Shown here piece by piece: positions 43,387 through 48,344 of a stretch of 64,000 bases of DNA; position 1 is the stretch's first letter; every line of letters begins with the position of its first letter. A program made the position numbers and the translations under genes. This DNA comes from a virus, in IMG/VR virus record IMGVR_UViG_3300010883_000015, positions 1 through 64,000 of that record. One strand, 5' to 3'. A model generated the notes under the pieces. That model was not told the DNA's origin. It did no database searches and saw only the letters and a list, made by a program, of their open reading frames with translations.

Positions 43387-43971
43387 ATGACACCTAAAAT
43401 ATTAGAGATAATAAAAAATAAAGGATACAAAATATTTCTAAATGGTTCCTATAATATAAATATTATAGGCGTTAGGGGCGATTCTTTAATATCAAATTCA
43501 TTTGATGATTCATTGTTTCTTGTTTTTAAGGATAGCGAAGGGCTTTGGGTCGAATTAAAATTTAAAATAACAACTGACCCCGGAAAATATTGGTTGCAAA
43601 ATCCTTCTCGTATTGAAGGTACGGCAATTCTTGTTGAAGGTCAATATAGTGGTGCTTATCGAATAGATAAACATCGTGGAAGTTATGATGCACTATGTCA
43701 GCGTGGTGCTCAAGTACGAATATATAGAGATAATAATAAAAATATAATATTAGACAAAGAAATTGAAGATATTAATTCTGGTTATTTTGGTATAAATATT
43801 CATAAAGCTAGTGCAACAAGAACAAGTACACAAGTAGATAAATGGTCAGCAGGATGCCAAGTTTTCGCTAATCCAGATGATTTTGAACTTTTTATGAGTA
43901 TTTGCAGAATATCTTCAAGTAAATACGGGAATTCATTTACTTATACATTAATTACCGAAAGCGATTTATAG
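43387..43971 (+). CDS. putative endolysin, L,D-transpeptidase (YkuD)-like Cys/His enzyme
   Basis: NIIGVRG, FDD, TTDPG, YRDNN, GINIH...WSAGCQVF; real start ATG 43387 after GGAG. Confidence 0.6.
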   Translation: MTPKILEIIKNKGYKIFLNGSYNINIIGVRGDSLISNSFDDSLFLVFKDSEGLWVELKFKITTDPGKYWLQNPSRIEGTAILVEGQYSGAYRIDKHRGSYDALCQRGAQVRIYRDNNKNIILDKEIEDINSGYFGINIHKASATRTSTQVDKWSAGCQVFANPDDFELFMSICRISSSKYGNSFTYTLITESDL

Positions 43972-43978
43972 GATAGTC

Positions 43979-44962
43979 ATGGAAGACTCTGACTTTATTT
44001 TAAAAATTGGTGACTGCATTGAAGAATTGAAATTATTAAAAGAGAATTCTATTGATTCTATTGTTACTGATCCTCCTTATGCCGTATCCATAGACAAAAA
44101 TGATTGGGACGATTTTAAATCTTTACGCCATTTTCAAAAGTGGTGTGAGAAATGGGCAATAGAATGCTTTAGGGTTCTAAAGCCCGGTGGTTATATTGTT
44201 GCATTTAGCTCGGGAAGAACGTATCACAGGTTAGCTTCGGGCATAGAAGACGCTGGGTTTCAAGTTAAAGATACAATTAATTGGGTGTATTTTAGCGGGA
44301 TGCCAAAGGGGTTACGAATAGATAATTTAGGTACTCAATTAAAGCCAAGTTGTGAGCCTGCGGTATTGGCCCAAAAGCCTATATCAGAAAAAACCTATGC
44401 TGATCAATTAAAGAAAACAGGTACAGGGTTTATGAATATAGATGAATGTAGATTCCATCATAAAGACCGTTGTTGGCTAGGCCCTAAAAATGCTGATTTT
44501 GTTAAAGCTTGGGATAAGCCGATAATGAGTAACTTTACAGGAGACGGAGCTAAGTTATTCGTGGCTGATAGTAAAACAAATTATCAAATAAGAGATATTT
44601 CTAAATATAAACCTACTGGTGGTAGATTTCCTGCGAATATTTATCATTGTAAAAAGCCAAACAAAAAAGAAAAAGATGCAGGAATAAGAGCATCGAGGGA
44701 TAATAACCAAAATGGAAGAAGAAACTTCCACCCAACAGTAAAGCCCTTAAAATTGATGAAATGGCTTGTTAGGCTAGTAACGCCCCGAAACAACAATGCT
44801 GTTGTCTTAGACCCATTTCTAGGCTCAGGAACAACGGGTATGGCTTGTTTATTAGAAGGATACCGATGCATAGGGATTGAGCGTAATCCTGAGTACAAAC
44901 ATATAATAGAATCTAGGATAAAAATAGCTAGAAAAAGTATTTCTGATAAAAATCTTGACTGA
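43979..44962 (+). CDS. DNA methyltransferase (N4-C/N6-A, beta class)
   Basis: VTDPPY, SGMPKG, LKPSCEP, GRFPAN, HPTVKPL, VLDPFLGSGTTG. Confidence 0.9.
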   Translation: MEDSDFILKIGDCIEELKLLKENSIDSIVTDPPYAVSIDKNDWDDFKSLRHFQKWCEKWAIECFRVLKPGGYIVAFSSGRTYHRLASGIEDAGFQVKDTINWVYFSGMPKGLRIDNLGTQLKPSCEPAVLAQKPISEKTYADQLKKTGTGFMNIDECRFHHKDRCWLGPKNADFVKAWDKPIMSNFTGDGAKLFVADSKTNYQIRDISKYKPTGGRFPANIYHCKKPNKKEKDAGIRASRDNNQNGRRNFHPTVKPLKLMKWLVRLVTPRNNNAVVLDPFLGSGTTGMACLLEGYRCIGIERNPEYKHIIESRIKIARKSISDKNLD

Positions 44963-44984
44963 ATATATTCGTATAGTTTATATT
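44955..44984 (+). promoter_or_regulatory. sigma70-like promoter
   Basis: TTGACT-N18-TATATT. Confidence 0.5.
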
Positions 44985-44990
44985 AATATA

Positions 44991-45099
44991 AGCCTCGTAC
45001 CGCCTTAATCACCTCCTAGCTCGTACACGGTCACCTAGTTTGTAATGATAGAGTATTTGTGAAAGGATCGCTGTTTATGATAGCGATCCTTTTATTTTT
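44991..45099 (+). ncRNA. candidate ~105-nt small RNA with anti-Shine-Dalgarno seeds
   Basis: lies between a promoter and a terminator; no ORF; C-rich segment containing ATCACCTCCT. Confidence 0.45.
45062..45099 (+). terminator. intrinsic terminator
   Basis: AAAGGATCGCT-N9-AGCGATCCTTT followed by TATTTTT. Confidence 0.85.
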
Positions 45100-45222
45100 A
45101 TATTTTCGGACATATTCTGTCTTGATCATGTCAATTCAATGTAAATCGCTTTAAATTATATGTTTAATCCAATACAATTAAACATGTCAATAAGACATTA
45201 ATATAAATAATAAGGTGGTAAT

Positions 45223-45579
45223 ATGGTAGATAAATTTTACTTAGGAAGTGTCGTAGTTACGAAGTCTTTAAATAATTTCTTAGAAGAAAGCGAGTCTTTT
45301 CAGAAGGTAATATTTGGGTGTCTCGAAAAGCATAAGTCTGGGAATTGGGGTGACACTGCCCTTAATGATTGTGAACTTAATAACAAGGCAATTGAAGAGA
45401 AGAATGGAGATAGAATTGTTTCAAAATATGAACTCTCTAATACGACTCTGAATTACCTTAATTGTGATTCGATTCCGAAAAGAGAAAGTGATCTTTATTC
45501 TTCTATTTTTATAATTACTGAAAATATTGGAATTACAGAAAAAACGTTAACAACACTACTGTTTTGTTCAGAATATTAA
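45223..45579 (+). CDS. hypothetical phage/plasmid-type protein
   Basis: LGSVVVT..KHKSGNWGD..N..AI..RIVSKY..IITE..TTLLF..EY; TAAGGTGG RBS. Confidence 0.65.
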   Translation: MVDKFYLGSVVVTKSLNNFLEESESFQKVIFGCLEKHKSGNWGDTALNDCELNNKAIEEKNGDRIVSKYELSNTTLNYLNCDSIPKRESDLYSSIFIITENIGITEKTLTTLLFCSEY

Positions 45580-45588
45580 GGAGTTGTA

Positions 45589-46935
45589 ATGAAATATAAT
45601 AATATGGAATTACATTTAAAAAGATATGAATATCCTGAAATGATAAAAAAGGGACTGATATTTCCTGTCTCATACAGTGAAATAAAAACTTTACCTTGTT
45701 CCAGAAAGTATGCATTTAAATATATAGAAGGCTTTTCTTCTAATTCTTATAGTAGGCCATTAACATTTGGAATTTCTTGGCACTATGTCTGTGAACAAAT
45801 CTTAATCAAAACAATAAAAACTGATCAAATTATGGACAATAAAGAAATAAATGATGTTTGTGATAAATATTTAGTTCATTTCCTTGAAGGTGAATTAAAA
45901 AACAAGTATTTCTATGAAGGTGTAACAATAAAAGGAGAAATAGAAAGCATAGTTACACAGATAAAATTAGGAATAATAGGATGGGCAAAGAATTGGTCGG
46001 AAAATATACATCCCAGATATAAAGTTATTGCTGTTGAACTTGCTTTAGGCATGCCTATTTCGTGCGACGGAAAAGTTCTCCGTAAAAAGATGACTTTTGT
46101 AAAGCATGAATTTAAAGATTGTGAAATATTAAGACTTCCTGTTTCTGGCGAGTTGGATAAAAATGGAAAATCTTTTTCAAAAGACAATTATGTACCTGAA
46201 ATTCAGATGGGTGATAAAATATCAACTGAATCGTTAAAAAACACTTGTATTTCTAAACAAATTAAATTCTTTAAAGTTGGAAAATTGGACTGCTTATTGC
46301 AGTCAAGAGAGACGGGTGGGCTATGGATATTGGATCATAAAACGTCTGGTTCACCAAAAGGGTACAAAACTAAGATGCAATTTAATCTTCAACTTCATAA
46401 TTATTGCTCTCTTGTTAGGTACGCCATTAAAGAGGGAAGGTTTTCTGATTTAAATTCAGATAATTTAATTGTTGAAGGGGTCATGTGGGATATCGCTTCT
46501 TCAAAATACAACCCGATGCAATTTGATTCTGATGGAAAATTAAAAAAGTTAAAGAGACCGATCCCTCCTTACCATATCGTTAAAGAATATGTTGAGAAGA
46601 ATAAGTTAGAAGACTCATATTCTGATTATTTAGATCTTTTAGAAGAGAAGAACCTCGACAAATATTTTTTAGTTGAAGAGATGATCTCTGAAGAAGATAT
46701 GGACAGATGTGAACTAGAAGATTACTGTTATGTTCAAGAAATGATCATAAAGAGAAAAAAGGCAGAAATCGTTAATTTGCGATCTCCTTCCGATCTTAGC
46801 GTAAAGATTCCACGTTTTACAATTTGTGAAACGTATAATTTTTGTCAATTCTATATCAATTGTTTTGCAAATACAGCAATGCACAAGATACAATATAAAC
46901 GTGAAGCCAATATGTTTTGGCGAAGCATTCTATAA
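45589..46935 (+). CDS. Cas4/AddB-like PD-(D/E)XK exonuclease
   Basis: SYSEI..CSRK, FGISWH, GKLD..ILDHKT, QLHNY, C-terminal CETYNFCQFYINC Fe-S staple. Confidence 0.8.
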   Translation: MKYNNMELHLKRYEYPEMIKKGLIFPVSYSEIKTLPCSRKYAFKYIEGFSSNSYSRPLTFGISWHYVCEQILIKTIKTDQIMDNKEINDVCDKYLVHFLEGELKNKYFYEGVTIKGEIESIVTQIKLGIIGWAKNWSENIHPRYKVIAVELALGMPISCDGKVLRKKMTFVKHEFKDCEILRLPVSGELDKNGKSFSKDNYVPEIQMGDKISTESLKNTCISKQIKFFKVGKLDCLLQSRETGGLWILDHKTSGSPKGYKTKMQFNLQLHNYCSLVRYAIKEGRFSDLNSDNLIVEGVMWDIASSKYNPMQFDSDGKLKKLKRPIPPYHIVKEYVEKNKLEDSYSDYLDLLEEKNLDKYFLVEEMISEEDMDRCELEDYCYVQEMIIKRKKAEIVNLRSPSDLSVKIPRFTICETYNFCQFYINCFANTAMHKIQYKREANMFWRSIL

Positions 46936-46963: not shown

Positions 46964-47746
46964 ATGGCTATTGAAATAAGAAGAGCAAGCGAGGCTCTAA
47001 AGAAAGGAAACACTCATGCAAAAATACTTGTCTGGGGCAATTCTGGGGTGGGCAAGTCGTGGCTCGCTGCCAGTGCACCGAACCCTTTGATTGTCCTAAC
47101 AGAGTCTAACGGGGCTGTCTCTGTTGGTCACAGCAACCCAGATGCCGATGTCATAGTTATCGATAATATTAAAGACTTGAGAACTATTTGTGGTATGGCT
47201 AAAAGTGGAAAGTTGAACAAATATGATACCATTGTATTTGACAGCCTTACAGAGTGTCAGAGGTTATTTAAAGATGAAATCCTTGGCGATAGGGATACTC
47301 TGAAAATACAAGATTGGGGCTTATTGGCTACTAGGATGTTAAAATTCATTCGCTTGGTTCGCGACTTACCTTTCCATATTGTCTGTACTGCTTTGGCAGA
47401 CAAACTTACAGACTCTGAGGGTGTCATAACAATGAACCTTCCTCAATTTGAAGGCAAGAAAACAGCTAATGAGATTATGCAATATTTCAGTGCTGTTGGG
47501 TATTATTTTCAAAAGAGCACAATCGTAAAGACAAGTGATGGTGATGAACATAAACAATTAGTTCGTAATCTTATGTTCGAGAACACAACAAAATGGATGG
47601 TGAAACCTTGCCACCCACTAACAAATGTATCTGATCCTAATATGACAGATATTATATCCCGCATAATTTCTGGTTCAAATACTACAGAGATTATTAATAA
47701 AAACAAAACTAAAAAAAATCAAAAAGTTGAGGTGACACATGGCTAA
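46964..47746 (+). CDS. Sak4-like AAA ATPase / ssDNA-annealing recombinase
   Basis: KILVWGNSGVGKS Walker A, TIVFDSLTE, QDWG; between exonuclease and SSB. Confidence 0.85.
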   Translation: MAIEIRRASEALKKGNTHAKILVWGNSGVGKSWLAASAPNPLIVLTESNGAVSVGHSNPDADVIVIDNIKDLRTICGMAKSGKLNKYDTIVFDSLTECQRLFKDEILGDRDTLKIQDWGLLATRMLKFIRLVRDLPFHIVCTALADKLTDSEGVITMNLPQFEGKKTANEIMQYFSAVGYYFQKSTIVKTSDGDEHKQLVRNLMFENTTKWMVKPCHPLTNVSDPNMTDIISRIISGSNTTEIINKNKTKKNQKVEVTHG

Positions 47747-48344
47747 AATAAACCCTAGAAAAGATGGAAGTATTTCCGATTCTGGATCAAGACCTAAGAA
47801 AGTAACGGCAGGTAATAAAATATTTGCCCCTATTGGAATAGCATACACAAAATCAGCAAACAAAGGAACTGTTTGTCTGCATGTATACTCTATTGTTATT
47901 AAAGACCTAGAAGGTGATAATAATGAAGGTATAATTCACATTGAAAAGTTTTGGCAAACAGGAAAGGCGCTTTGGAAGGTTGCTAATTTTGCATTATCAA
48001 TGAGATGTGAAATTGAATTTGATTCAGAGGATAGGAATGATGTTGAGAAGATGATAGCCAATGGTGTGTGTTTCTCTGGTGAAATCGCTGTTAAAGATAG
48101 CGGTGAATATACTGTTAGAGAGATCGTTAATTTTAATATACCTAGTGATGTAATAGATGATGGTAAATTGAAGTTGACACCTGAAATGGAAGAATATATT
48201 GTTCAGGGAGAACAAGCGTTTCCTAAATATATTCAAAAACAAAAAGAGTATGGTGTTAACTTTATAGAACCTAAAAGTTCTGTTAAGATAGACTTATCAT
48301 CTGACGAGGAAGAAGAATATCAACATGATAGTATCCCATTCTAA
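47739..48344 (+). CDS. single-stranded DNA-binding protein
   Basis: follows Sak4; acidic tail ending DSIPF. Confidence 0.7.
   Translation: MAKINPRKDGSISDSGSRPKKVTAGNKIFAPIGIAYTKSANKGTVCLHVYSIVIKDLEGDNNEGIIHIEKFWQTGKALWKVANFALSMRCEIEFDSEDRNDVEKMIANGVCFSGEIAVKDSGEYTVREIVNFNIPSDVIDDGKLKLTPEMEEYIVQGEQAFPKYIQKQKEYGVNFIEPKSSVKIDLSSDEEEEYQHDSIPF

Follow-up and report, generated by a model that had tools for sequence, protein, structure and literature searches.

A conserved, C-rich 3' end of a marine phage methylase operon as a candidate anti-Shine-Dalgarno small RNA

Does the short intergenic region behind a methylase gene of a marine virus simply close an operon, or does it encode a small RNA that silences translation with a copy of the ribosome's own 16S rRNA tail? 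An earlier note, made from the letters of the DNA, had proposed the latter, namely a phage RNA that mimics the 16S tail and silences phage or host messages, or else a cis-acting translational switch on read-through transcripts.

The window, that is the whole stretch of DNA analysed here, takes up the first 64 kb of a marine virus record from IMG/VR that is 80,695 bp long, and the best holder of the stretch was a marine metagenome. Searches with blastn (44700-45500 against the INPHARED phages) returned no relative. No close relative was found by protein-pattern scans of IMG/VR (118-aa ORF, exonuclease, methylase and an exonuclease alignment), in JGI metagenomes queried with the methylase or in GTDB genomes queried with the exonuclease alignment, and an exact-word scan of IMG/VR with a 19-mer of the C-rich element treated below gave 0 matches. 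Protein searches in ENA and Logan yielded two homologues of the exonuclease (34-36%), while the 118-aa ORF had a single one (34%) among 5.8 billion proteins. Matches to cultured phages by tblastn (primase/helicase and a 547-aa exonuclease-like ORF) were distant only, at no more than 31% identity, which made a host assignment impossible.

The region in question is the 260-nt 3' flank of the methylase gene (44963-45222), which carries the element and lies between the following features:

43387-43971, plus strand: 194-aa protein, PHROG 3000 (endolysin-like), first gene of a two-gene operon with the methylase
43979-44962, plus strand: N6/N4 DNA methyltransferase (Pfam PF01555, E 5.7e-43; PHROG 67), last gene of that operon
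45122-45191, plus strand: promoter/operator-like region of the downstream operon, TTTAAA-N17-TACAAT with direct and inverted repeats
45223-45579, plus strand: 118-aa ORF without Pfam, PHROG or NCBIfam family, first gene of the exonuclease/Sak4/SSB-like/RuvC-like operon

The downstream operon continues from the 118-aa ORF with a PD-(D/E)XK exonuclease, a Sak4-like annealing protein, a 201-aa SSB-like protein and a RuvC-like resolvase. Its putative control region contains the direct repeat TT[G/A]A[T/A]CATGTCAAT in two copies (45122-45135 and 45178-45191) and the 9-bp inverted repeat ATGTTTAAT/ATTAAACAT (45160-45185), which together bracket TTTAAA-N17-TACAAT. From this arrangement, 45122-45191 is likely the regulated promoter/operator of the recombination operon. 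The genes of the phage are led by Shine-Dalgarno sites, AAGGAG for example occurring 33 times on the plus strand.

The 201-aa protein (47739-48344, 3' of the Sak4-like gene) had been called ssb. It has no Pfam, PHROG, NCBIfam or PDB sequence match and matches no SSB family, but its C-terminus ...DSIPF (SSDEEEEYQHDSIPF) forms an acidic SSB-type tip that makes the name plausible, and the protein may be a very divergent SSB. Two further non-coding regions lie in the genome outside the window. The first (71784-72509, 726 nt) combines a strong terminator with a long tract of A/T-rich tandem repeats (~72170-72290) and two copies of TTGACAATTGCT, and may represent a replication origin or a major regulatory region. 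The second (66907-67633, 727 nt) is very A/T-rich, contains no ORF of at least 45 aa and has a terminator at its start.

Signals delimiting the candidate RNA

The candidate RNA would extend from a promoter-like site at the end of the methylase gene to the terminator behind it:

44955-44984, plus strand: sigma-70-like promoter match TTGACT-N18-TATATT (10/12), predicted start near 44991
44991-45104, plus strand: candidate non-coding RNA of ~110 nt, with no ORF, a fold z of -3.4 and no Rfam family
45059-45104, plus strand: intrinsic terminator, a 17-bp hairpin (45059-45095, dG -20.8) with TTTTATTTTT

The promoter site described in the earlier note is present, its -35 overlapping the methylase stop codon (TGA, 44960-44962) and its end lying 7 nt 5' of the C-rich element. 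Matches as good as this one (at least 10/12) number 56 genome-wide, 38 of them inside genes, and the interval 43800-46000 holds 7 promoter-like sites against 10.6 expected from shuffles. Because matches of equal quality are common and two-thirds of them intragenic, the promoter-like site is only mildly supportive.

The terminator is as strong as had been claimed. With its 17 pairs it ranks among the three strongest of the genome, and the hairpin directly precedes a U-tract with 9 U in the 10-nt tail. A terminator is, however, required at this position anyway, to end the methylase operon, and this counts against reading it as the mark of a small RNA.

The coding potential of the region is low, in keeping with the proposal of an untranslated RNA: just two ORFs of at least 20 aa occur in 44963-45222, both of 31-32 aa and both running through the terminator hairpin. 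Read on the minus strand, AGGAGGTGA runs into TTAAGGCGGTACGAGGCTTATATTAA, where neither ATG nor GTG nor TTG occurs at usable spacing. The Shine-Dalgarno-like motif of this strand was thus rightly described as having no suitably spaced start codon, and a translated minus-strand ORF was not found. The single match to the 19-mer of the element in JGI metagenomes lies in an unrelated G+C-rich contig (L002, 8231-8249), where its reverse complement forms an RBS with a GTG start; it was rejected as a relative and ascribed to chance, and it illustrates the RBS-like character of the element's minus strand.

The stretch could accordingly be taken for the relic of a minus-strand gene start, with AGGAGGTGAT as the former RBS of an ORF since lost. 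The minus-strand motif is the genome's best Shine-Dalgarno match, and the same 19-mer does serve as RBS in the unrelated contig. However, the minus strand offers neither a start codon or ORF nor a promoter-like site, both neighbouring genes lie on the plus strand, and the stretch is conserved, whereas a relic should drift. We therefore hold a relic to be highly improbable.

Rfam gave no match on the element even at E values up to 10, only the terminator hairpin being touched, and nothing at gathering score in the whole genome. Among the runs listed as holding the stretch, none is on record as RNA. With its -35 over the methylase stop codon and a single terminator, the geometry fits a small RNA derived from a 3' UTR. 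The architecture as a whole, in which the promoter-like site is followed by a 5' part rich in C, a linker rich in A/U and the strong terminator, likewise appears to fit that of a small RNA.

The C-rich element and its 16S-tail-like motifs

The 5' half of the candidate RNA had been called unusually C-rich, and so it is. In a genome with a G+C content of 34% and a C fraction of 0.149, positions 44993-45038 (46 nt) contain 19 C and 7 G and form the joint most C-rich 46-mer of the plus strand. The remaining windows of highest C content are found beneath minus-strand genes; this one alone is located within a plus-strand transcription block.

A C-rich, G-poor tract at this place might load Rho, as a rut-like site that backs up termination after the methylase. 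Its position just 3' of the stop codon, its composition and its many YC dimers would suit such a role. The tract is, however, short for a rut site and would be redundant with a strong intrinsic terminator less than 60 nt downstream. Rho loading would also leave the exact 16S-tail identity described below unexplained, and we give it very little credence.

The internal repeats recorded earlier all exist, with CTCGTAC (44994, 45020), TCACCT (45009, 45031) and CCTAG (45015, 45034) each occurring twice. They make the element an imperfect tandem duplication, in which CTCGTAC-N8-TCACCTCCTAG is followed by CTCGTAC-N4-TCACCTAG. Two visible tandem units of this kind may also suggest a site that acts as DNA and is bound by a phage or host protein in regulation, replication or packaging. 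The short palindromes (GTAC and CTAG, each twice, and GGTCACC), the conservation of the element and the adjoining replication/recombination module are consistent with this idea. On the other hand, the motif is found nowhere else in the genome, the units are just two, differ by an indel and are spaced at 26 bp, which is off helical phase, and for DNA the strand-asymmetric C-richness and the exact 16S-tail match would be meaningless. A DNA-level site thus seems decidedly unlikely.

At the level of RNA, the element contains the following features, with the 16S rRNA 3' tail taken as given in PMC5732282 and PMC5427494:

44992-45031, plus strand: 5' hairpin from fold prediction (GCC/GGU, GUAC/GUAC, GC/GC) with the 15-nt loop CUUAAUCACCUCCUA (45004-45018)
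44998-45007, plus strand: seed 1, TACCGCCTTA, complementary to the RBS of gene 45223 and agreeing in 8/9 letters with ACCUCCUUA (16S end)
45008-45017, plus strand: ATCACCTCCT, ten letters of the 16S rRNA 3' tail GAUCACCUCCUUA, unique in the 80.7-kb genome
45030-45036, plus strand: GTCACCT, third 16S-tail-like motif, unpaired probability 0.55

The identity of 45008-45017 with the 16S tail was corroborated, as only 0.065% of composition-matched shuffles reach a 10-nt identity. Within 46 nt the element holds three tail-like motifs, one of them a perfect 10-mer. Three such sites occur in 2% of composition-matched shuffles, and a total of 21 nt covered by tail-like motifs in 0.18%. The motif content is therefore unusual beyond composition-matched chance; the proposed targets, considered in the next section, are not.

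According to the predicted fold, the palindrome GTAC from both tandem copies would form the hairpin stem and place AUCACCUCCU inside the 15-nt loop, with an unpaired probability of 0.96. When the changes found in a marine relative were applied, the predicted hairpin stayed the same and this value was 0.98. Seed 1 has a mean unpaired probability of 0.56.

Three other identities of the element were considered and rejected. A boxA/nut-like antitermination site was discarded, as the element agrees in ~5/8 letters with what we take to be the boxA consensus and has no boxB-like hairpin. A fragment of a 16S gene was dismissed on the grounds that the identity ends at 10 nt. A 16-nt A/T-rich inverted repeat (44972-44987/45197-45212) is of low complexity and crosses the helix proposed with gene 45223.

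Conservation of the region and its proposed targets

The relative just mentioned is ~93% identical and is represented by short Logan contigs of two other marine studies (runs X3 and X8), which belong to one lineage. Over the 287 nt of 44933-45219, the differences listed comprise 5 substitutions and 1 indel (~2%), a partly inferred count in which the best-supported rows are those listed and rows of equal depth are reasoned to be as shown. The changes are 45027 A>C, 45053 G>A, 45061 G>A, the loss of one T at 45095, 45107 C>T and 45191 T>G. The flanking coding pieces show 6.65% differences over 2,858 nt, and the intergenic count departs from this coding mean with P ~1e-4. Among the methylase differences listed, 16/18 fall at third codon positions, which gives a third-position divergence of ~22%. 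At that rate ~10 changes would be expected in the 46-nt C-rich element, where 1 is listed, and third codon positions in this ~93% relative have diverged roughly ten times as far as the intergenic region as a whole. Judged by these divergences, the intergenic region is shown to be under purifying selection.

All three tail-like motifs and the promoter-like site are free of change among the differences listed, so that the conservation of the seeds, which speaks for the earlier proposal, holds in this one lineage. Through the change at 45061, a G-U pair in the stem of the terminator becomes A-U. Conservation is equally high in the downstream half of the intergenic region, where 45122-45191 is the same apart from 45191 among the differences listed; the constraint thus extends over the entire intergenic region and does not single out the C-rich element. 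The 5' part of the 118-aa gene (45220-45356) behaves differently, with a divergence of at least 16% versus 6-8% in neighbouring genes, and the alignment of the relative breaks at 45356, inside the gene. By this comparison, it is a fast-evolving first gene of its operon.

The same gene provides the target that had been proposed for seed 1:

45211-45220, plus strand: TAAGGTGGTA, RBS of gene 45223, pairing with 44998-45007

The ten contiguous pairs between TACCGCCTTA and TAAGGTGGTA, one of them G-U, do exist, and a helix this good or better with this particular RBS was found in only 0.9% of 1,000 shuffles (P ~0.009). Targeting is nevertheless doubtful, as half of the shuffles (P 0.50) formed an equally good helix with any of the 109 RBS regions of the phage. 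The expectation that the seeds would pair with phage RBSs beyond shuffled controls was not supported: 15 of the 109 RBS regions had a helix of at least 7 bp, compared with 14.6 in shuffles. The complementarity of GTCACCT to AGGTGAC at 47730, in the RBS of 47739, is correct in its 7 letters and trivial as evidence for a target; with four copies of AGGTGAC on the plus strand, this "ssb" match carries no weight. A second RBS with AAGGCGGT at genome position 78685 was given no weight because the shuffle test showed no enrichment. The perfect complement of seed 1, TAAGGCGGTA at genome position 73595, lies inside a gene and was taken as chance.

Covariation between seed and RBS, which had been named as a check of the pairing, is not seen in the relative. 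Its RBS/start region of gene 45223 is altered at 45220 (A>G, leaving a U-G pair), 45222 and 45226 while the seed is unaltered, and the predicted duplex is weakened from -18.8 to -14.5 kcal/mol with no compensation. On the basis of these modelled duplexes, the target-region changes appear neutral to mildly negative for a specific pairing. The RBS of gene 45223 may still be considered the best single candidate target, though a weakly supported one.

The same helix could instead work in cis, as an insulator by which 44992-45007 pairs with the RBS/start of gene 45223 on read-through transcripts, so that the gene is translated only from its own promoter. The minimum free energy fold of 44963-45240 does contain the long-range 10-bp helix, with a 3-bp extension around the start codon, and the P value for this one RBS points in the same direction. 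Against this stand the great strength of the terminator, the separate promoter/operator-like region found between it and gene 45223, and the relative, in which the helix is weakened with no compensation. A cis insulator is accordingly very unlikely, and the cis-acting switch offered in the earlier note, which faces the same terminator and a downstream operon with a promoter/operator-like region of its own, is not upheld.

A simpler explanation deserves more weight, namely that the region is an ordinary 3' UTR with the terminator of the methylase operon and no action in trans. The C-rich stretch would then be structural (for example in 3'-end stability) or a leftover, and the low divergence would be due to the neighbouring promoter, terminator and operator signals or to a recent recombination tract. 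This reading draws on the upstream operon's need for a terminator, on other terminators of the genome that likewise lie 70-110 nt beyond a stop codon and on the frequency of promoter-like matches. The RBS pairing statistics, which equal those of shuffles, and the equal conservation of the downstream half also agree with it. It does not account for the 16S-tail identity and the triple motif above composition-matched chance, nor for the near absence of change in the 46 nt relative to the third-position rate, and the low-divergence tract ends near both coding boundaries, which is unexpected for a random recombination tract. We consider an ordinary 3' UTR possible, though somewhat unlikely.

Proposed action and known systems

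According to our analysis, the lysin-like/methylase operon has this conserved stretch as its non-coding 3' end, and to judge from its signals the stretch most likely yields an RNA of ~110 nt. We tentatively prefer the reading that this RNA is an anti-Shine-Dalgarno small RNA which ends at the terminator of the methylase operon and acts in trans. Its start would be the promoter-like site over the methylase stop codon and its end the strong terminator; alternatively, it would be the methylase mRNA's 3' UTR, with the same end. The hairpin in its 5' part would present AUCACCUCCU, the anti-Shine-Dalgarno letters of the ribosome, open in the 15-nt loop, flanked by two more tail-like motifs. By pairing, the RNA may then cover the Shine-Dalgarno sites of messages from phage or host and deny 30S subunits access to them, as has been found for small RNAs with C-rich loops. 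Transcription from the promoter-like site, action in trans and every target are what we infer from these features. Of the original idea of a small RNA mimicking the 16S tail, the architecture, the tail copy, its predicted exposure and the conservation have thus stood, and the specific targets are doubtful.

The RNA might go further and be a true mimic of the 16S tail, which competes generally for Shine-Dalgarno sites and is not a gene-specific antisense RNA. From its motifs we judge this to be unlikely. If it were so, messages with strong Shine-Dalgarno leaders (host or early phage) would be shut down while those with weaker or different leaders escape, and the phage would make a decoy of the ribosome's docking strand. 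To our knowledge, very little has been mapped of the small RNAs that lytic and uncultured phages make. If the preferred anti-Shine-Dalgarno RNA is real, it would add a marine case in which a phage borrows the docking sequence of the ribosome to steer translation, perhaps to time the switch from one class of genes to another. In practical terms, the locus contributes a single instance to what may be a recurring class of phage anti-Shine-Dalgarno RNAs.

A type III toxin-antitoxin system with ToxI-like repeats was rejected, there being only two units, of 26 and 19 nt, that differ by an indel. The Rfam search of the element gave no match to ToxI, and the 118-aa ORF had no match to Pfam toxin families (ToxN/CptN/TenpN-type sought) and only one weak PADLOC match, PDC-M15B (E 0.005).

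Among 3'-UTR-derived small RNAs, those of the DapZ/MicL type are transcribed from a promoter that lies within the preceding gene or at its end; they are enterobacterial, Hfq-dependent and have mapped 5' ends. The candidate resembles them in that its promoter-like site overlaps the last codons of the preceding gene, and it would use the terminator of the mRNA and have its seed near the 5' end. It differs in that its promoter is a consensus match only.

The phage c4 antisense RNA pairs with the ribosome-binding region of the first gene of its target and is cut from the same transcript as that target. In phages P1 and P7 it silences the operon just downstream (PMC8198154). The candidate is loosely similar, as a phage RNA whose template directly precedes the operon that it would silence, but it has no match to the c4 Rfam family and is separated from its target by a strong terminator and a second promoter-like region.

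The closest comparison is with the bacterial small RNAs RsaE/RoxS (PMC6158497) and mycobacterial 6C (PMC6486639), which carry C-rich-loop/anti-Shine-Dalgarno motifs. In these RNAs, the loop motifs pair with G-rich ribosome-binding sites and block initiation (PMC6158497, PMC6486639). The candidate differs from them in matching no Rfam family, whether by sequence or by covariance model, in copying ten letters of the 16S tail in its loop where they have a CCCC or UCCC motif, and in being phage-encoded and known here from its sequence alone. It would share with them the form of a short RNA ended by an intrinsic terminator, and it has C-rich loop motifs that are likewise unpaired, in its own case by prediction; a translation-silencing small RNA of this already known kind is a credible, if unproven, account of the locus.
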